64,000 nucleotides of DNA, taken from Promethearchaeota archaeon (GTDB lineage Archaea; Asgardarchaeota; Lokiarchaeia; Sigyniarchaeales; SOKP01). The position numbers and the translations under genes were made by a program. The notes under the pieces were generated by a model, which saw nothing but the letters and a program-made list of their open reading frames with translations, was not told the DNA's origin and ran no database searches. This document shows, piece by piece, positions 33,850-56,049 of this stretch (position 1 is the stretch's first letter; each line of letters starts with the position of its first letter). Where the stretch lies: assembly GCA_030599585.1 (NCBI GenBank), contig JAUVNS010000011.1, positions 96,001 to 160,000 on the forward strand, given 5' to 3'.

Positions 33850-36800
33850 CTATTTAGATTTCCAATGTTTTTTTCCCTTCTTGGTTTCTACCATTACCAA
33901 TCCCTTGCGCTCTAATTCCTTCAGTTTTATCTGTAAAAAACGAGCATCCATCATATCTTTTATTTTCATTTTAAATATTAAAGCTGTTATTGCTTGCCAA
34001 TCTTCAGATAATGCGTCTATTATTTTCTCTGTAGTAATTATTGGCAATTGAGTTTGAGTTAGCGCGGGTTTAGGCTGTTGAGCAGTAATTACTGGTTCTT
34101 TTTTAACCGGTTGTTGATGAATTATTTCACCCTTGGCAATTTGTAATTGTTTTCTTTTTTTGGCTATGGTTCCCGGTGGAACTGGTTCGATTTTTAATGG
34201 TGCCTTTGCTATTTTGTCCAAGGGTATCCTTTTTTCTGGTTTTCCTTTATCATAAAATTCTTGAATAAATTTAATAATTTCTGATTTTCGAGCTTTAGAT
34301 GGTAGAGAAATGTTCTTTTCCATACAATATTCTTTTAGTTGATTGATAGTCCAGTTAAGAAGAGTTCTTACACTAAGAAGCTCATCACTAGGTTTAATTT
34401 TTTCAGGAATGCTCTTTTCCTGAACACCCGTGTCTTCCCATTGAATCTCAACTTTTTTAGGTTCTAATTCAATAGGCTCTATCTTTTCAGGTTCGGATGG
34501 TTTCTTTTCTTTAATTTTAGGAGGCACTTTTACTCCAATTGCATTTCTCATCAAGTCTTCCAATTCCTTTTCTGAAATTTTCCCCTTATATTTTCCTTCT
34601 CCTTGTGATACGATATTATAGGCACTTTGAACGAATATTGGGATATATTTCTCAATTAAACCAGCTCTTTTCTCGCTCTTTCGAATATTCGCTCTACGAT
34701 TAAGATATACCCTCAAACGTCTTCCTATGGCCTCAAGACAAAATTTAATCTCTTTAAGTAAATCTTCGTCTTCAGCTAATGCGTTTTTCGATTGAGATTT
34801 AAACATCAAATGGACATAAGGCCCTGAAATATTTACGAGAAGTTTAATTGGACCTTTTGGTAGATTATTATCATACACATCTAATTTATAATTTTTCCAA
34901 TTCACAGATTGAACTGCTTTAGTGATAGCACAATCGGCACTATCTCTTAACTTAGGAGTTCTATTAACGAATCTTGAGAGAACATCCCTGGAACGTTTGG
35001 GAGTTTCAAGTTTCTTCGAATCGTTACAATACGCCAATGCAGCTTCAACAACATATGCTAATCCTTTGCCCGAAGTAGGTGGTCTTGTTTCTGCGCTTAC
35101 AAAATCATCATCTTTAGTGTAAATTTCGGTGAAGAAATCAAAAACATCGCGATAAGAATCTTTCTGAACTTCTGTAACAGAATTTAATTTTTTTTCAATT
35201 GTTCTCTGAAATTCTTCTGGTTCTAAATACTGGTCTTTAATATCAATACTAACGAGAATTCTGGAGTTGAAATTTTTAACATCTTCAGGTGTTAGTATAG
35301 TATCTTTTATTTTATTTTCGATGTGTTGTTGTTTGTCTTGATCTCTCTTCAATTCTTCTTGAAGAATATCATAAGACATTTTTACATTTTCAATAGGGGC
35401 ATCAAAATCATCAATATTCTCCGAGATTTTAAGTCCAATTTCTTTAATCAGCGTATTTTCTAATACAATATCTCCAACTGGAATCGCTGTATCTGTTGGT
35501 GGTGACATATATTTGATAGATTTAAAGGCGTGGAAAAGTGAGTTAAATTGGTCGTTAGTTAAATCAGAGGGTTTTACTTTTGAAATTTGAACTTCGTTGA
35601 TTAAATCTTCCAGTTCTGCACGATTATTTAATTTTTTAACCTCTATTAAGCCAGTATTATCTTTAAAAATCTTTTCTAAATCATTTTTAATTTTTTCTCT
35701 TTCTTGGAAAATTCTATCTACATCTTTTAGTAGATTACTAACTTCTTTTTCAATTTTTTTTATGTCTTTTTTTGTCTCGGATTTATCAATACGATTGCGG
35801 TGTTTTTTTATTTCTCTATATATTTTTTCTAAATCTTTATCAAAATTGTTATTTTTATCCATAGATTCCCAGTATTTAATCTTCAATTCTTCTGAATTAA
35901 TATTGTAGATAATCAATTTATCGCGCGGTTTTGTTGAACGTCCGTAAACCCTAGTTTCATACTTAAATAAGTATATTAAATCACTTCTCTTCACTAATTT
36001 GTTTATGAATCCATTTTTAAGTATCATTAGAGATAGTTTATCTTCTAAGTTTCTTTCTGCAATTTTCAAAATCTCTTTTGCTGTTTTTGAACTCAATCTC
36101 ACGAAATTATCCTGTAGAAAAGCGGATATCGTAAAATTTTCTGATTTTGTTAAGAGATCTTGTAAATCACCAATATTAGTTGATGATGGGTGAGGTTTAG
36201 CATATTTTGGTTGTTTTGGGAAACTTGAGACTAATCGTCTGTAAATCCATTCTTTTCCATATGGATCTATAAAAATAAGAGTTATGTGGGGATTCAATAA
36301 AGCGGTTTCTTTAATGTAGGTATCTACGAAACCACGAGTGTATTTTACATTTAAATAGTTCAATTTTATATATGTCCCATGTAAGAACGGGCTACTACAG
36401 TCTGTAGGACGAACTAAATATTTCTTTTCATTTTTAGAGGTTGTAAAAAATTCTGAAACAGTAGCATATATAGTATTTTTTGACTTTGATACTGCTACTA
36501 TTGGTTTCCCAGTTGTATTTTGGGCATCGCTAAATGCACTCGGGGCACCGAAACCCTGACTTCCACGGGTTTGCTTCAATTCAAGGCTTTTTGAAGAAGC
36601 TAGATACTTACCAAATTTCCGCATATCTCCTTTGTGCATGCCAATACCATTATCAAAAATTTCGAATGTATAACTCATAACATTTTTCTGGGATAATTCA
36701 GAAGTTAAAAAGGTAGCAGCTTCAGATTCTCTCAAGCGAATAATAACAATTGGTTCAAGATCTACAATGGGCTCTACAGGTTTTATGATTTCGTTCATAT

Positions 36801-37239
36801 CTTCAATTATTCTTTTTACTTCTTCTTCTACTTCGAGCTCTTCTTTATCGGCGATTTCTCCAGATTCGTCTTCCATATCGTTGATTGGATCTATTTCAGT
36901 GTTAGATGTTTCTGTAGGTGCGTGTCCGATTTCTTGCATTAGAGCAAATTTTGCTTCATTTGATAGAGGCTGATCAATTTCATCTTTTTTCGCTTCTTGA
37001 AGAATTGATAAATTTTCCAAAGTTAATTCTTGATCTAGAGAAAATTGAGTTCGTGAATCACCCTCTTTTAACTCCTTCCACTGAAATTCTTCAATAGCAT
37101 CTAACGCGTTATCTAGAAATTCAGAGGCGTATTGCTGATGTTTCCAATAACCAAACTCAAAACCCACTAATTGAGTCCGCTTTCTCATAAATTGTGCTAT
37201 CGTCCCTTGCTTTATCCTGCCTTCTTCATCAGAGGAAAT
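33850..37239 (-). CDS. top6B: DNA topoisomerase VI subunit B, enlarged by insertions, a HeH-like module and a C-terminal wH
   Basis: EFLDNALDA, DNGIG, RGSQGFG, PHP, RFVNRTP. Frame is open upstream of 37188 (ISSDEEGRIKQGTIAQF-MRKR); a probable ATT start at 37239 follows GGTG. Confidence 0.9.
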   Translation of the reverse strand: MSSDEEGRIKQGTIAQFMRKRTQLVGFEFGYWKHQQYASEFLDNALDAIEEFQWKELKEGDSRTQFSLDQELTLENLSILQEAKKDEIDQPLSNEAKFALMQEIGHAPTETSNTEIDPINDMEDESGEIADKEELEVEEEVKRIIEDMNEIIKPVEPIVDLEPIVIIRLRESEAATFLTSELSQKNVMSYTFEIFDNGIGMHKGDMRKFGKYLASSKSLELKQTRGSQGFGAPSAFSDAQNTTGKPIVAVSKSKNTIYATVSEFFTTSKNEKKYLVRPTDCSSPFLHGTYIKLNYLNVKYTRGFVDTYIKETALLNPHITLIFIDPYGKEWIYRRLVSSFPKQPKYAKPHPSSTNIGDLQDLLTKSENFTISAFLQDNFVRLSSKTAKEILKIAERNLEDKLSLMILKNGFINKLVKRSDLIYLFKYETRVYGRSTKPRDKLIIYNINSEELKIKYWESMDKNNNFDKDLEKIYREIKKHRNRIDKSETKKDIKKIEKEVSNLLKDVDRIFQEREKIKNDLEKIFKDNTGLIEVKKLNNRAELEDLINEVQISKVKPSDLTNDQFNSLFHAFKSIKYMSPPTDTAIPVGDIVLENTLIKEIGLKISENIDDFDAPIENVKMSYDILQEELKRDQDKQQHIENKIKDTILTPEDVKNFNSRILVSIDIKDQYLEPEEFQRTIEKKLNSVTEVQKDSYRDVFDFFTEIYTKDDDFVSAETRPPTSGKGLAYVVEAALAYCNDSKKLETPKRSRDVLSRFVNRTPKLRDSADCAITKAVQSVNWKNYKLDVYDNNLPKGPIKLLVNISGPYVHLMFKSQSKNALAEDEDLLKEIKFCLEAIGRRLRVYLNRRANIRKSEKRAGLIEKYIPIFVQSAYNIVSQGEGKYKGKISEKELEDLMRNAIGVKVPPKIKEKKPSEPEKIEPIELEPKKVEIQWEDTGVQEKSIPEKIKPSDELLSVRTLLNWTINQLKEYCMEKNISLPSKARKSEIIKFIQEFYDKGKPEKRIPLDKIAKAPLKIEPVPPGTIAKKRKQLQIAKGEIIHQQPVKKEPVITAQQPKPALTQTQLPIITTEKIIDALSEDWQAITALIFKMKIKDMMDARFLQIKLKELERKGLVMVETKKGKKHWKSK

Positions 37240-37464
37240 TTTAATTACACCAATCTGTTTTTTATCATTAAAACTCGATTATCAAATATTTACATAAAAG
37301 ATTTTATAAGTATTATAATTAATATTGCACGAAAAATCTAATACTTACGCAAATCAATCAATTTTACAAATTGTATTTGGTCAATCATTTTGAACAGAAA
37401 TTGAATTACTATTTAAATCTTTTCTTCTTAAACGACAAAAAATTTTAAAGAGTAGTAGAGGTTT

Positions 37465-49646: not shown

Positions 49647-50519
49647 TTAAATTGTATCTTCTCCTACTCCTAATTGTGAAATCATCATCCTCTTGAGCTC
49701 TTCTTTGTTTTTAGGTAATCCAAACATATCCGCATATTTATCGGTTGTATTTAATTCTGCTGACCTTCCTTTTTTTACCGCCGTTATTAGATCGTTGTCC
49801 AAGAGGTATTTCACATGCTCGTAAGCGCCACTCCCTCTTAATTTAATAACGGTTGATTTTAAAATTGGCTGTTTCAGAGCAATTACTGTAAGTGTTCTTA
49901 AATAGCGCTCAGCAATAGCACCACCTTTAGCGAATTTGGAAACTGTTTCTGTAAGTTCCGGTCTTAGCTGCATTTGATATTTTTCTCCAATTTGGGCTAC
50001 AATCAATGCACCTTCACGGTCCAAATAGTCAAAAGCAACTACATTTACAAGTTCTTCGACTTCTTTTTTTGGGATTTCTAATTTAGTTGATAATTCTTCT
50101 ACATCCAGAGGTCTACCAGCCGCGTAAAGAGCACCCTCTATTAAATTTCTCCGTAGAATTTTTAATTGTAATTCTAATTCTTCCTTCGTGAGTTCTTTAG
50201 GTATATGGGATTCAACTATATCCGCTCCTATAACTTCGGTCTCTCGTTTGCTTAAGCTTTCTTCTGACGGGTCAAGACTTGATAAATTTTCTTCCTCAAT
50301 ACTTAATTCTTCTTCAATAAACTCTTGGCTATCTTCTTCATCAGAATCTTGTTTAAGATAATCTTCGATGGTTTCTTTGGTCTCTAATTCGATCTCAATA
50401 TCCTCTAAATTCCTTTCTTCTTGAGTAATTTCTTCGGCATCGGTCTCATCTAAAGGTTCTTCTTCATTCGTTTCGTCTTTGAATTGATTTTCCTGTTCTT
50501 TTTCATTATTTTCGTTCAG
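49647..50519 (-). CDS. scpB: SMC-Scp subunit ScpB with a ~115-aa acidic N-terminal extension
   Basis: Frame is open 165 codons upstream of the tracked ORF, through LIEGALYAAGRPLDVEEL, to CTG at 50519 after GGTGA; C-terminal TLTVIALKQP...RG...TTDKYADMFGL. Confidence 0.88.
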   Translation of the reverse strand: MNENNEKEQENQFKDETNEEEPLDETDAEEITQEERNLEDIEIELETKETIEDYLKQDSDEEDSQEFIEEELSIEEENLSSLDPSEESLSKRETEVIGADIVESHIPKELTKEELELQLKILRRNLIEGALYAAGRPLDVEELSTKLEIPKKEVEELVNVVAFDYLDREGALIVAQIGEKYQMQLRPELTETVSKFAKGGAIAERYLRTLTVIALKQPILKSTVIKLRGSGAYEHVKYLLDNDLITAVKKGRSAELNTTDKYADMFGLPKNKEELKRMMISQLGVGEDTI

Positions 50520-50548
50520 ATTCTATCACCAAAAATTTGGATTGTAAT

Positions 50549-51553
50549 TTAACTTTTTAAATTTATTGAGAAATCTTTAAAATCTTCGTCTTGAAATAGT
50601 TCTAACTTATTCCCTGTTGAGAGGAACATTAAAGCCAAAAACATGCGAACAAAAGCGAACTTCTTACCAATGTCGCTTTTTTCTTCTATGTTAATAATTT
50701 CTGCCATGTCATAAAAGGAGGTTTCTTTATCATCGAGGTTTATTTTAGTTTTTATTCTGTTAAACCAAGCGTTGTGTAACTCTTCCACAGTTTGCTCCTT
50801 CCCGCTAATGTGTTTCAAAAGTTCTTTTGGTAGTTGTGCTTTAGATTTTTTTTGAATTCGCTGTTCCTTTAATTCATCCCGCCTCATCCTTCGCCTTTTT
50901 AGTTTTTCTTTCTTCTGCATAGTCTCAATAATAGCAGATCTCATAGCGTCAAATAATTCGTCTTTAGTGGAGATTAACATTTTAGGCTGAATAGGTTGTG
51001 GTAAAGATTTGGGTATTGATCTACCGTGCCTTGCTCTAAATTGCGCCAATTCCTCCTTTTTTTGAATTTGTTCTTCGTCCCGTATTATGCTAGAGATTTT
51101 GTAATGATGTAATACTGCTGAAGTTTTAAGCGCGATTCCTGAAATTTTATAATTAATTAAATCTTCATGAAGCATGTTATTGAAGAATTTGTCAACTAAT
51201 GCTGCCAGATCGTAAAATGCAACATTTGATTCCTTAGCAACTTCGGGGTCTAGAAGGCTTGAAAAAGGTGGTTTATGCCAGAACTTTAACTCTAACTTTT
51301 CTTTATACAATAAAGCGGGGTCTTCTTCCTCGCCGGCGACTAACTCTTCTTCCAACACTTCTACATCCACGTTATCTTGAGTTCGATCTACAAATTCTGG
51401 ATGTGAAGCGATCTTTTCTATGAATTTAATAATTTCATTCTTTTTTGATTTAGACGGTATTTTTATGTTGTTTTTACTTGCAAATTCCCTTAATTTCTTT
51501 ACAGACCATTCACTGAAGTTGTATTTTATCTCTTCACTTTCATTTTCTGGAAC
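50549..51553 (-). CDS. scpA: Kleisin ScpA with N-terminal HeH/LEM-like module
   Basis: DLAALVDKF...ISGIALKTSAVL..K N-domain and FLALMFL...LELFQDEDF C-terminal wH; frame open 61 codons upstream of 51370 behind an AGGTG RBS. Exact start (GTT/ATC/ATA at 51553-51559) is uncertain. Confidence 0.82.
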   Translation of the reverse strand, partial: VPENESEEIKYNFSEWSVKKLREFASKNNIKIPSKSKKNEIIKFIEKIASHPEFVDRTQDNVDVEVLEEELVAGEEEDPALLYKEKLELKFWHKPPFSSLLDPEVAKESNVAFYDLAALVDKFFNNMLHEDLINYKISGIALKTSAVLHHYKISSIIRDEEQIQKKEELAQFRARHGRSIPKSLPQPIQPKMLISTKDELFDAMRSAIIETMQKKEKLKRRRMRRDELKEQRIQKKSKAQLPKELLKHISGKEQTVEELHNAWFNRIKTKINLDDKETSFYDMAEIINIEEKSDIGKKFAFVRMFLALMFLSTGNKLELFQDEDFKDFSINLKS

Positions 51554-51579
51554 GATTATACACCTGAAGCTTATAATTT

Positions 51580-54500
51580 TTAATTTTCTTCAATAGTAGG
51601 GGGTACATCCGGAAGTTCGAGTAACCTTTTTGCTTCTTCTTCTAAATCGACACTAAAAATGTCGGTGATACCGCTTTGTTGCATGGAGACACCGTATATG
51701 CGATCTGCGTTAACTATATTCTCTTCACGATGACTTATTACCAAAAATTGCGCTTGTCTGGCAAATTCTTTGATTACTACACTTACTCTATGAACATTGG
51801 GCCCATCTAATGCTGCATCTATCTCATCCATAATATAAAATGGCGCAGGATAAAATTCCTGAACAGCAAAAATAAATGACAAAGCAACGAGTGTTTTTTC
51901 TCCTCCGCTCAGTATTTCTAAACTGGAGATACGCTTCCCACGAGGTCTAGCTTCTATGCTACATCCACCTTCAAAAGGTTTATCTGGTCTGTCGAGAATC
52001 ATTTTTGCAGATCCCCCCGGTGAAAGCTTCTGAAATATGCGAGCAAACTCACGATTAATTTCGTGGTAAGCCTTCATGAATGTTCGAGTTTTTTCCAATT
52101 CGATTTTTTCAATAGCGTCGAGAATTGCTTTTCGTTCACGTTGTATTGTTTGCCTTCTCATATCTATTTCGTCAAATCTTTCTTTTACAGTATCATATTG
52201 CGTAATAGCTTTTAAGTTAACTGGTTCCAAAGCTTTTTTCTTGTTAGTAGCTGTAGAAATATCTGATTGTAACCCGGATTCTGAAAGCTCGTCAGTCACT
52301 ACCGGCAATGCGCCGTAATCCTTCGATCTCTGGTAAAGAGTTTCTATTTGATCTGTAGTAATAATCTTTTTTGATTCAAAATTGTTTAGTTTTGAATTTT
52401 GCATAGAAATATCAGAGCGTAGGTCGTTTATTACTTTCTGATAATTTTTTTGTTTTTGCCAGGATATATCTTTTCCTTGAATCTGTTTATTAATTTCTTC
52501 CTGTTTTACGTTCTTTTTGTCTTCTTCTTGTTTTAATTCAGTTTCAATGTTTTCAATGTCTTTTACTATTAATTCTATTTGTTTCTCAGTTTCTTTAATG
52601 TCTTGGTTAAGAGATATTATTTTTTGTTCTCGTTCTTTATTTTTATTTAATTCGTTTAATTTTGCTTGTATTTTTTGAAGATCTTTATTGAATTTATTTA
52701 ATTCTTTTTGAACTTTCTTTTGAGCTTCCAACTCTTTGTTTTTATCTTCTCTTAAAGCATCTATGACTAATTGAATTTCAGTGACTTTCTTTTGTACCTC
52801 ATCTACTTGAGTATTAAAACCCTCAACATCTAGAGTACAAGTTTTAATATTTGCTTTAGCTTCCAAGTTTTCCTTAGCTAGTTCTTCAATTGAATTGATA
52901 ACCATCATAACATTTTCAAGTGCTCTTAGGTTATCCATTGTACTTTCTAATTTTTTATTCTGATCACCAATGTGTGCCCTTAACTTTTCGGTATTCTCCC
53001 AAAACTTATTTTTTTCTAAAATATTAGAATCGATTTTTAATGTTAAAGCTTCTTGTTCTAAATTGAGATTTTTAATGTTTTCTTCAGTGTTTATTATGGT
53101 ATTTTTCTTATTTTCTATATTTGAATTTAATTCTTGGACATTTTTCTCAATATCAATAATCTTTTCATAAAAATTTTGTATTCCTTGCAATTCTTGAAGT
53201 CTTTTTTGCAGATCGTCTAATCCTTGTTGCTTTACTTCTATATTTTTCTTGATGGTAGAAACTTTATCCCAGTAATCCTCTTTGAGTTGTTTTAAATTGT
53301 TTATTTCTTCATTGAAATTTTCTTTTTGTTTTTCTCTTATTACATTATTCCTCTGTTTAACCTCAGCATCAGATTTTTCGATTTTTTCAAGTAATTCAGT
53401 GATTCTTTTATTAACTTTTTCTAACCTCTTATTAGTAACTGATAAATCGTCAGAATCATGTTTTTCTTGAGTATTTATCCGGGTTAAATCTTTCTCAATT
53501 TTGTTTAGATCTACATTTTGAGATGCAATATTTTCAGTAATCTCTTCAAGCTGTTTATACTGCTCTTGGGATTTTGACATGGTGAGTTTTCGCAATGATA
53601 AGTATACATTCTCAAGAATTTCCATTAAATCTTGCACAAAGCTATCAAATGTTGATGTAGATTGTTGAATCTCTACATCAGCAGTTTCCTTTACAGAATC
53701 AATTAACTGATCTATCGTGGTATCAACATTTTCAGTAAAAAGAGTTAATGTCTGAAGTATAGACTTGAGAGTTTCAGACACTTCAGCATCCTCTGGTTTC
53801 TGTTCTGCTTCTGCTTCAGCTTCAGAGCTTACGTCTTCAATCGTCGTCATAATATCAATAATGTCAAGGACAAATTGTTTAAAGTTGACCGCTGATGTAT
53901 CAATTGCCTCAGCGTTAGACTGTTGAATGTTACTCTTGATAGATTCAACGGATATATTGATATTCTGAGTTAGCATGTTCAGTATTTGGAGGATTCCGGT
54001 TATATCTTCAGTATTTCTTTCGTATTCTTTTTCTGTATTTTCTATTTTAGCTAACAAATTATTTTTCTCAGTGGTTAGCTCTCCTAACCGTCTTTGAATA
54101 TTATCTTTTTTTTTATTAAGCCCTTCTGATTCAGAGCTAATTTTAGTTAAATTTGCGTTCAGAGTTGACGATTTTAATTCTAAATCTTGTTTTTCTCTCT
54201 CAAGATTTGTCAATTCTTTTTTTAATAGATTTGACCTCGTATTAATATTATCAATTTTAGTTTTGTTATCATTAATTTCTGATTCAATAGAATCTTGTTT
54301 CATTAACAATAATTCTAAATCTTGTTCATTTTTTCTATAAATAGAATCTTCATCTTTTAATTGTTGTCGATAACTGTTTAATTCGTTAGTTAGCGTGTCT
54401 TTTTCCTTTAAAAGCTCTTTTAATGCCTCTTCTGTGTCTTTCCCTTTACTTAATTCTTTGATTTTTTCTTCAGTTTTAATTTTATCTGAGTTCAATGTCT

Positions 54501-56049
54501 CTATCCTATCGGTGTTCATCTTAATCTCTGTAGTTAGTGACGATAACATAGATTTAAAATCTGTTGCCTTTGAATTAAGTTTGTTCTTATCTTCTTGTAG
54601 GGTTATAATAATTTTCTCTAGATCTTGTTGATTTTCGTTCTCTTTTGAGATTTTTATATTCAAGTCATTAATTTCTTTTCTTGTGGCTTCAGCTTCATTT
54701 TTTGTGTTGGCTATCGCATCTTCAATGCTTTCTGATTCTCCTTTTAATTTGCTAAGATCTAGTTCTAATTTCTGTTTTTTTCCTTCGTTTTTTTTAATAT
54801 TTTCTTTCAGAATTTTAATTTGAGCTTTATTCGATGAAATATTTTGCTTTATAATGGAGATTTCTCCATTAAATCCTGTTTTTACATCGCTTTGATCTTT
54901 AATTTTTGCATCAATATCAGCTTGTTTTTGATGTTTACTTTCTATTTCTGCTTTTGCTGCTTCAATCTGGCTCTCTGTATCTGCTACAACCTTCCTTTCT
55001 GATTCAATTAAAGAATCAAATGTTTGATCTTCATCAAGAACCATCTGTAATTTTTCCAATGTATTAATTTCTTGAGAAATTTTTTCAACTGACTTATTTG
55101 CGAGGGTTAAAGATGTTTGATTTGAAGATTGTTGTGTTTTAAGATGAGTAATTTTTTCAGTGATTATTTCCCTTTCTTTTTCTTTTTCAGTTATGGTTTT
55201 TTGAATATTTTCCATAACCAATGATTCTTGTTTTATAATGTCATCCTGTCTTGTTAATTTTTCTTTTAACTCTTCTAAAATTGTATTAGATTCTTCAATA
55301 CTTTTTTCTAGATCATTTTCTTCCTTCCTTAATTTCTCAATCTTTAATGCTATCAATTGAGCGTTGTATAAGTCGATTTGTTCATCTAACTCTTTCCATG
55401 CCAAAGCATCATTCTTTTCCTTTTCTACTTTCTTTAATTGAGAAGAAACTTCTTTGAAAATTGCTTCAAATTGGCCTAGATCTCTTTCAGCCTTCTCTAA
55501 TTCCTTCATAGTTCCATCTTTCATCTCATCGTATTTCTGTAGGCCAATAAGTTCTTCTATAAATATTCTACGGGCTACCGGGTTCATGTGAGTTAATTCT
55601 ACTATTTTCCCTTGCAGAACGAATTGATTGCTTCCATCAGGATCTACATTTGCTGCTGCAAGAGCATTAAGAATTTGAGTTCTAGTGGATTTTTTACCGT
55701 TCATCTTATAACCTCCACCCCCACCTCGTTGAATTGTTCGAGTAACTTCAAATGTTTCTGTTCCACCTGGAAAGATTTCCTCTGAGTTATCGAAATATAA
55801 TGTAACCGAAGCTCTATTTGAAGGGTTTTTTCCTCGGGATCCGGCAAAAATCAAATCTTCAAGGCTCTTAGCTCTCATAGTTTTTTTGCTTAGCCTACCT
55901 AGAGCAAACGTTAAAGCGTCAATAATATTAGATTTTCCTGCACCATTTGGGCCTACTATACATGTAAAACCACTCGAAAGTCTAAGAGTAACAGTTCTGT
56001 CACCAAATGATTTAAATCCGGTCATAGAAATTTTTTTGATGTAAGTCAA
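51580..56049 (-). CDS. smc: SMC ATPase with elongated arms and a non-canonical central domain
   Basis: GPNGAGKS, FVLQG, LSGGEK, IMDEIDAALD, SH loop; directly upstream of scpA and scpB. Confidence 0.93.
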   Translation of the reverse strand: MTYIKKISMTGFKSFGDRTVTLRLSSGFTCIVGPNGAGKSNIIDALTFALGRLSKKTMRAKSLEDLIFAGSRGKNPSNRASVTLYFDNSEEIFPGGTETFEVTRTIQRGGGGGYKMNGKKSTRTQILNALAAANVDPDGSNQFVLQGKIVELTHMNPVARRIFIEELIGLQKYDEMKDGTMKELEKAERDLGQFEAIFKEVSSQLKKVEKEKNDALAWKELDEQIDLYNAQLIALKIEKLRKEENDLEKSIEESNTILEELKEKLTRQDDIIKQESLVMENIQKTITEKEKEREIITEKITHLKTQQSSNQTSLTLANKSVEKISQEINTLEKLQMVLDEDQTFDSLIESERKVVADTESQIEAAKAEIESKHQKQADIDAKIKDQSDVKTGFNGEISIIKQNISSNKAQIKILKENIKKNEGKKQKLELDLSKLKGESESIEDAIANTKNEAEATRKEINDLNIKISKENENQQDLEKIIITLQEDKNKLNSKATDFKSMLSSLTTEIKMNTDRIETLNSDKIKTEEKIKELSKGKDTEEALKELLKEKDTLTNELNSYRQQLKDEDSIYRKNEQDLELLLMKQDSIESEINDNKTKIDNINTRSNLLKKELTNLEREKQDLELKSSTLNANLTKISSESEGLNKKKDNIQRRLGELTTEKNNLLAKIENTEKEYERNTEDITGILQILNMLTQNINISVESIKSNIQQSNAEAIDTSAVNFKQFVLDIIDIMTTIEDVSSEAEAEAEQKPEDAEVSETLKSILQTLTLFTENVDTTIDQLIDSVKETADVEIQQSTSTFDSFVQDLMEILENVYLSLRKLTMSKSQEQYKQLEEITENIASQNVDLNKIEKDLTRINTQEKHDSDDLSVTNKRLEKVNKRITELLEKIEKSDAEVKQRNNVIREKQKENFNEEINNLKQLKEDYWDKVSTIKKNIEVKQQGLDDLQKRLQELQGIQNFYEKIIDIEKNVQELNSNIENKKNTIINTEENIKNLNLEQEALTLKIDSNILEKNKFWENTEKLRAHIGDQNKKLESTMDNLRALENVMMVINSIEELAKENLEAKANIKTCTLDVEGFNTQVDEVQKKVTEIQLVIDALREDKNKELEAQKKVQKELNKFNKDLQKIQAKLNELNKNKEREQKIISLNQDIKETEKQIELIVKDIENIETELKQEEDKKNVKQEEINKQIQGKDISWQKQKNYQKVINDLRSDISMQNSKLNNFESKKIITTDQIETLYQRSKDYGALPVVTDELSESGLQSDISTATNKKKALEPVNLKAITQYDTVKERFDEIDMRRQTIQRERKAILDAIEKIELEKTRTFMKAYHEINREFARIFQKLSPGGSAKMILDRPDKPFEGGCSIEARPRGKRISSLEILSGGEKTLVALSFIFAVQEFYPAPFYIMDEIDAALDGPNVHRVSVVIKEFARQAQFLVISHREENIVNADRIYGVSMQQSGITDIFSVDLEEEAKRLLELPDVPPTIEEN

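Follow-up and report, generated by a model that had tools for sequence, protein, structure and literature searches.

Where does the ScpA kleisin of a Lokiarchaeial genome begin, and does it carry a domain of its own ahead of the kleisin fold? The question is raised by a stretch of 64,000 nucleotides (nt) from contig JAUVNS010000011.1 of a Promethearchaeota archaeon, here called the window, to which the coordinates refer and which encodes smc, scpA and scpB on its minus strand. In a program-made list of open reading frames (ORFs) scpA opens at GTG 51370 and ends at 50549, giving 273 amino acids (aa). An original prediction, made from the letters of the window, held that the frame upstream of this codon encodes an unannotated HeH/LEM-like domain, joined by an acidic linker to the kleisin and possibly anchoring it to DNA or chromatin. 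Here we present the evidence that this extension is a conserved N-terminal domain of the helix-extension-helix (HeH) type, together with a description of its probable start codon and its proposed function. ScpA would be a three-part kleisin (HeH, acidic linker and ScpA body) that is translated from a near-cognate start and whose HeH serves as a tethered anchor for double-stranded DNA, a reading that we hold to be moderately probable. In the labels used below G000 is this genome, C-numbers are contigs, and L, P and g stand for loci, proteins and genera, respectively.

In the minus-strand translation of 51700-50549 (...Y*RKLKIISFRCIIVPENESEEIKYNFSEWSVKKLREFASKNNIKIPSKSKKNEIIKFIEKIASHPEFVDRTQDNVDVEVLEEE...) no stop occurs before the frame joins the ORF of GTG 51370. 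The smc gene ends with TAA 51580-51582, and the scpA frame opens after TGA 51590-51592, three codons ahead of this stop, overlapping the last smc codons. The peptide from which the extension was originally described maps exactly to 51413-51553 of the minus strand and is in frame with scpA, so that the open frame between the smc stop and the scpA ORF is confirmed. Among the 72 codons preceding GTG 51370 there is no ATG, GTG or TTG; gene finders missed the domain because no such codon precedes it, and their calls begin at GTG 51370. According to our own arithmetic, a random frame of 61 codons (51553-51370) would stay open at a GC content of 32.6% with a chance of <1%. ORFs on the plus strand across the region (51259-51423 and 51420-51596) are short, of low complexity and unsupported.

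The extended protein P0001 (336 aa) was used as query in a six-frame search of 40 relatives and found matches in 38 of 41 genomes, the window's own included. Within the genus, 17 other genomes have a match that starts at residue 10 or earlier and contains no internal stop. A wider draw of 80 further genomes from the family yielded matches in 67, and in 54 further family genomes the match likewise starts at residue 10 or earlier and is free of stops; the family genera with an aligned N-terminus are g1, g12, g13, g14, g15, g16, g17 and g21. Stops and frameshifts in close relatives, named at the outset as what would speak against the domain, were found inside the matches neither in the genus nor in the family. 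Over the 45 codons of the HeH core, 12 species without a canonical start differ with nonsynonymous rates (dN) of 0.05-0.16 and mostly saturated synonymous rates (dS), the median dN/dS being 0.12. Judged from these codon comparisons, strong purifying selection acts on the protein sequence of the HeH core.

In public protein databases 356 relatives are found, many of them 330-345 aa long and covering 96-100% of the query. Several of these orthologues already bear precomputed Pfam matches (PF10281, PF12949, PF07498 or PF02037). Those with an ATG (MPEE..., MSEN..., MTEE...) begin in the alignment exactly at V3 of the window protein, and some orthologues carry a tandem HeH pair (P0064, P0098, P0107). 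Because the extension is conserved without stops and has a low dN/dS, the genome comparison shows it to be a real, translated and conserved N-terminal domain of ScpA; the open frame alone would be a weaker proof. The word 'unannotated' applies where the start codon is non-canonical, but not to the many public orthologues of 330-345 aa that include the domain with its Pfam matches.

The AF2 models (full-length and residues 1-63) place a helix at residues 20-29, an extended loop at 30-39 and a second helix at 40-51, with pLDDT values of 82-90. In Pfam the window protein matches Ish1 (E 1e-4), Rho_N (1.4e-4) and HeH (0.08). When 21 orthologues were scanned one by one (E<=1e-3), 12 matched Ish1 (best 2.7e-11), 10 HeH (5.2e-10), eight Rho_N (3.7e-7) and three SAP (3.9e-9). 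A VIA structural search with the 63-residue AF2 model against all representatives returned a list in which this fold group prevails, with the Rho N-terminus (1a62_A, Z 5.2), the SAP domains of PIAS1 (1v66, 5.2), SLX4 (7bu5_B, 5.1), E1B-AP5 (1zrj, 4.8), Hcc-1 (2do1, 4.3) and Tho1 (1h1j, 4.3), and the SAP-like domains of MANF/CDNF (CDNF/MANF-BiP complexes 9i5y_B and 6h9u_B). Emerin LEM is also in the list (7ndy_G, Z 4.3, root-mean-square deviation (rmsd) 1.8 A over 40 residues; 2odc_I, Z 4.2), not above the SAP and Rho-N matches. Pfam LEM (PF03020) gave no match on the window protein at E<=10, nor in the 21 orthologues at 1e-3.

By its profile matches and predicted structure the extension is thus shown to belong to the helix-extension-helix superfamily of SAP, HeH (Man1-Src1p), Ish1 and Rho_N modules (PF02037, PF12949, PF10281, PF07498), and not to LEM proper. 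With these modules it has in common the two helices of 10-12 residues, the extended basic loop and the hydrophobic/lysine pattern L..F....I.IP.K.KK..II; it differs from them in being fused to a kleisin and, in the window copy, in scoring below the curated cut-offs. LEM proper (emerin, LAP2, MAN1) probably has the same superfamily fold, but there is no sequence match to it, and its nuclear-envelope context is not present here. The partner of the LEM domain is the metazoan protein BAF, rather than DNA. Of the term 'HeH/LEM-like' the first half describes the fold well (AF2, Pfam and VIA agree), whereas LEM holds at the level of the superfamily; nothing found here supports a specific evolutionary tie to LEM or nuclear-envelope proteins of eukaryotes, the likeness being one of fold.

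A profile of the ScpA HeH finds five other ORFs in the genome; among them, a gelsolin-repeat protein and a Top6B-like protein are matched in their SAP/HeH domains at 1e-9. The gelsolin-repeat protein (C22:132912-134117 (-), L033) has two C-terminal copies that score above the curated Pfam cut-offs for Ish1, SAP, HeH and Rho_N, and may link an actin regulator to DNA in an Asgard archaeon. The Top6B-like open frame lies in the window at 33853-37278 (-) and with 1142 aa is about twice the usual length of Top6B; it comprises HATPase_c_3 (residues 202-285), the Topo-VIb transducer domain (724-870) and a ScpA-related HeH (975-1007). An IFT52-GIFT/ABC_transp_aux-like protein (C22:213552-214841 (-), L034) has a C-terminal HeH, and two further carriers contain NOV_C, a restriction-endonuclease-like domain (C49:1-1155 and C12:10770-12353).

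The body that follows the extension is a genuine ScpA kleisin, as judged from profile and structure comparisons, because profile A2 (78 sequences including distant homologues, searched against PDB) and Foldseek both match known kleisins and scpB adjoins the gene. Besides the N-terminal domain match (Table 1), A2 matches 4i99_C (Pyrococcus ScpA-C, E 1.9e-8), 5xns_C (7.2e-7), B. subtilis ScpA 5h66_C (9.8e-5) and cohesin Scc1 6qpw_B (9.3e-5). The full-length AF2 model has a mean pLDDT of 77, and its best Foldseek match is 4i99_C (TM 0.84, rmsd 2.3); with this model Foldseek recovered the C-terminal winged helix alone, and not the HeH. A narrow profile of 21 sequences gave only a weak Scc1 match against PDB (E 0.29), and Pfam SMC_ScpA has no match on the window protein. 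All three genes are on one strand, with scpA between smc and scpB. In its N-domain, winged helix and gene position the protein is homologous to ScpA of Smc-ScpAB (PF02616; 6ivh of Thermococcus, 4i99 and 5xns of Pyrococcus, 5h66 of B. subtilis), but it is so diverged that Pfam SMC_ScpA misses it, and it has an additional HeH domain and an acidic linker of about 30 aa at the N-terminus. Canonical archaeal ScpA proteins recovered in an exhaustive search (P0148, P0152, P0155; 256-272 aa) show no alignment ahead of query residue ~89. In these proteins 10-25 residues precede the kleisin N-domain and the extension is absent, which bears out the statement of the original prediction that canonical ScpA begins directly with its helical domain.

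The start of scpA is most likely one of two near-cognate codons, ATC or GTT, placed by the Shine-Dalgarno (SD) sequence AGGTG (Table 1), as alignment of the loci suggests. In the genus a spacing of 6-7 nt separates the SD from the codon just ahead of P/S/T-E. This codon is GTT in the window and in L002-L004, ATT in L005, L007, L008, L010 and L014-L017, ATA in L006, GTA in L009, ATC in L011 and L012 (immediately after a stop codon) and ATG in L013. Coupling to smc by termination and reinitiation was considered as a general route and rejected, since smc is not directly upstream in L009 and L011-L013 while the SD and the near-cognate codon are kept. The AUU starts of E. coli infC and pcnB are similar in that a weak AUH or CUG codon stands at optimal distance after a strong SD; in contrast to these, the near-cognate start is no rare regulatory exception in this genome, and in scpA the start may even be GTT, which initiates very poorly in E. 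coli (10.1101/063800).

A second gene of the row behaves in the same manner. In scpB there is no ATG, GTG or TTG in the first 165 codons, and the first canonical codon comes only after a conserved winged-helix segment of the N-terminus; the ORF from that codon misses positions 1-43 of the SMC_ScpB profile. In relatives the start codon is CTG, TTG, ATG, ATA or ATT, and in the window scpB most likely starts at CTG 50517-50519, behind GGTG, by the same kind of comparison. The acidic arm ahead of the ScpB winged helices has a net charge of -37.

Across the genome, codons were counted that open an ORF of >=120 codons, stand 7-8 nt after GGTG and have a stop shortly upstream. There are 51 cases of ATT/ATC/ATA, with a median distance to the next canonical start of 19 codons (2% within three codons), 37 of ATG (27 codons, 3%), 37 of GTG/TTG (14 codons, 14%) and 22 of six common control codons (one codon, 64%). 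ATT, ATC and ATA peak 7-8 nt after GGTG, at the same spacings as ATG and unlike the control codons. The ribosomal protein S19e (C40:65457-65873 (-), L038) has ATT 7 nt after GGTG, and its Pfam domain covers residues 3-138 while the first canonical codon is number 101. Among its relatives (L047-L076) seven share ATT and GGTG, and in 17 further species of the genus the codon at this place is ATG, with no SD; the ATT of S19e is also found in another family (complete genome G032). Pfam domains that start upstream of any canonical codon also occur in S4 (ATC; C24:248184-248684 (-)), UvrB (ATA; C34:37638-39641 (+)), CheR (ATA; C8:133879-134919 (-)) and a NosD/beta-helix-TIR protein (ATC; C3:93082-95451 (-)). 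Because of the spacing peaks of ATT/ATC/ATA and the domains of S19e, S4, UvrB and CheR, near-cognate initiation behind a strong SD is, on genomic evidence, a genome-wide property of the organism and not a peculiarity of scpA. A whole-genome ARAGORN run listed 17-21 tRNAs and no tRNA-Met in this genome, which is scored as 100% complete; intron-containing or split tRNA genes are the presumed reason. A literature search covering few subscription journals found no paper on near-cognate starts in Asgard archaea.

These data bear on two other readings of the missing start. It could be a decaying remnant left untranslated after loss of the start, with functional ScpA made from GTG 51370. The missing ATG, GTG or TTG before the domain, the poor initiator GTT at canonical SD spacing and the public annotations of the closest relatives, which start at an internal GTG (P0006, P0010; 273 aa), would agree with this. 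A remnant should hardly have stayed open in 12 species without a canonical start at a dN/dS of ~0.12 while synonymous change saturated; moreover, the conserved SD precedes the extension and not GTG 51370, a protein started at that GTG would begin within the acidic linker, and essential genes of the same genome use near-cognate starts. We therefore regard decay as very improbable. An error of assembly or sequencing, such as a lost A, is suggested by an out-of-frame ATG (51541-51543) beside an A-run inside the extension, and a frameshift fusion with SMC by the overlap of the scpA frame with the last smc codons. Both are effectively refuted: 12 species with independent assemblies show the arrangement without canonical start, an in-frame TGA lies three codons before the smc stop, a slippery heptamer is absent, L011 and L012 have a stop directly before ATC, and smc is not directly upstream in L009 and L011-L013. 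The features of the locus are summarized in Table 1.

Table 1. Features of the smc-scpA-scpB locus in window coordinates
Feature	Coordinates	Strand	Evidence or remark
smc	51580..56049	(-)	ORF, 1489 aa, opens the smc-scpA-scpB row; Pfam SMC_N E 4.4e-42
scpA, full coding sequence as re-read	50549..51556	(-)	334-335 aa + stop; public-style calls begin at GTG 51370
Shine-Dalgarno AGGTG of scpA	51561..51565	(-)	(A)GGTG in 16/17 genus loci holding the start region; AGGAG in L013
Candidate scpA starts: ATC 51554-51556 (4 nt after SD), GTT 51551-51553 (7 nt)	51551..51556	(-)	alignment
HeH/SAP-like domain, P0001 residues 15-51	51407..51517	(-)	Pfam, AF2, VIA
Acidic, predicted disordered linker, residues 59-88	51296..51385	(-)	pLDDT <50 at residues 63-80, 86-88
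Kleisin N-terminal (SMC-neck-binding type) domain, residues 98-217	50909..51268	(-)	profile A2 vs 6ivh_A, E 6.7e-15
Kleisin C-terminal winged helix (SMC-head-cap-binding type), residues 246-336	50552..50824	(-)	profile A2 vs 4i99_C; Foldseek
scpB, 290 aa, ~120-aa acidic N-terminal arm	49647..50519	(-)	Pfam SMC_ScpB E 5.4e-23
scpB GGTG (50527-50530) and probable CTG start (50517-50519), 7 nt apart	50517..50530	(-)	sequence

The acidic linker that was said to join the extension to the kleisin is present as described: it is predicted to be disordered, comprises ~32 residues and has a mean net charge of -10 (45 orthologues). The HeH core has a net charge of +6 in the window and of +3.7 on average in 53 orthologues. 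Loci of scpA were also compared in other genera and families of the order (L021-L032, L077, L079). In the other families, too, an appendage at the N-terminus of ScpA precedes an acidic stretch, but the appendages are of different kinds, and the starts are for the most part ordinary ATG codons. At the position of the HeH, sister lineages have Lys/Ser/Thr-rich tails (MAKKTTKKKKK..., in L021 with a charge of +29 over 69 residues) or a C2HC zinc knuckle (MPKCPYCGK...HKC) accompanied by a run of residues rich in Lys; the knuckle also occurs in genus g18, inside the window's own family. Three unrelated basic or zinc modules with an acidic linker at one site are what generic binding of polyanions, most simply of DNA, would lead one to expect. 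This swapping of modules is the main support, at the level of predicted proteins, for a role as generic DNA anchor.

In the full protein a net-positive SAP/HeH module (~40 residues) is followed by the acidic linker (~30), predicted to be disordered, and the ScpA body with N-domain, central region and winged helix. Judging by what is known of Smc-ScpAB and of SMC complexes in eukaryotes, the kleisin N-domain would sit on the SMC neck, beside the DNA-clamping surface of the engaged heads, so that the HeH would be held near the SMC neck and head, where it could bind double-stranded DNA. On its flexible tether of ~30 residues the basic module may touch the DNA clamped there or a segment next to it and thereby provide an extra DNA contact of the Smc-ScpAB ring, which might aid loading or keep hold of one DNA segment during the steps of the motor. 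The acidic linker and the ScpB arm (-37) could modulate this electrostatically, shielding the module until DNA is engaged. A role of the extension as DNA or chromatin anchor, as first suggested, is best called plausible. Eukaryotic kleisin anchors (the condensin Brn1-Ycg1 safety belt, the cohesin Scc1-STAG/NIPBL clamps) are conceptually alike in offering a DNA contact besides the SMC head and hinge sites; they consist of HEAT-repeat partners together with loops of the kleisin, and not of an N-terminal SAP/HeH, and no homology is implied.

Several observations weigh against the reading of a DNA-anchoring HeH behind a near-cognate start. The Pfam scores of the window protein are under the curated cut-offs (Ish1 23.0 vs 26.6; Rho_N 22.2 vs 24.9). 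The VIA Z-scores are only 4-6, as expected for 40 residues but within the range of common arrangements; the weight of the VIA result comes from the agreement of its list with the Pfam matches and not from the Z-scores. A profile of 17 sequences of the HeH only found nothing significant and nothing of SAP type among PDB sequences (best GM130 peptides, E 0.13), and the sequence case for HeH therefore rests on Pfam. GTT has two mismatches from AUG, and GTH codons are not enriched genome-wide at SD spacing. The structural matches include protein binders (SLX4 SAP-MUS81, MANF/CDNF-BiP, LEM-BAF), and some modules of SAP/HeH fold assist RNA binding, as in the N-terminus of Rho.

The last two points lead to other partners for the module. 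As a protein-protein adaptor, the HeH would recruit SMC to an Orc1/Cdc6-like loader or a histone or chromatin protein, or dock on the ScpB arm or SMC. That the best structural matches include SLX4 bound to MUS81 (7bu5_B), CDNF/MANF bound to BiP (9i5y_B, 6h9u_B) and emerin LEM bound to BAF (7ndy_G) speaks for this, as does the ScpB arm (-37), with which a basic module could pair. We consider an adaptor unlikely, since the Lys-rich tails and zinc knuckle at the same site in sister lineages suit generic polyanion binding better than a specific interface, and since in this genome a HeH of the same type is joined to Top6B, an enzyme that acts on DNA. Binding of RNA or single-stranded nucleic acid, in the manner of the Rho N-terminal domain, would couple SMC to transcripts or R-loops. 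In its favour, Rho_N ranks near the top in both the Pfam and the structural comparisons (1a62_A, Z 5.2). The helical N-terminal subdomain of Rho is accessory to the RNA-binding OB fold, and no OB or other RNA-binding domain was found in ScpA by Pfam or AF2, which makes an RNA ligand improbable to our mind.

The Pfam matches on some public orthologues were known already; new is the description of a SAP/HeH-kleisin in at least eight genera of one Lokiarchaeial family. Searches on Asgard kleisins with SAP, HeH or LEM, which covered few subscription journals, found no paper on such a fusion. For genome annotation the finding has a practical side. In public annotations of the closest relatives ScpA and ScpB are cut short, many of the gene starts in these genomes being ATT, ATA, ATC, CTG and possibly GTT, and with such starts comparisons of Asgard SMC systems that rely on called proteins miss these domains. 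Cultured Lokiarchaeia presumably belong to the sister lineages and would then have ScpA with the Lys-rich tail.

In the usual view a kleisin is a passive strap, closing the SMC ring and recruiting partners. A kleisin with a module of its own, swapped for others in sister lineages, suggests an extra N-terminal DNA contact beside the DNA-clamping heads. In a wider proposal, which we put forward tentatively and hold to be doubtful, Lokiarchaeial Smc-ScpAB would rely on a kleisin-borne anchor that is interchangeable between lineages (HeH, tandem HeH, C2HC knuckle or Lys-rich tail), is gated by the acidic linkers of ScpA and ScpB and loads or holds DNA during loop extrusion; such an anchor would be specific to Asgard archaea and would prefigure the anchors of condensin and cohesin. 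As Asgard archaea are the archaea closest to eukaryotes, the three-part kleisin may bear on how the anchoring of SMC complexes to DNA evolved before eukaryotes.

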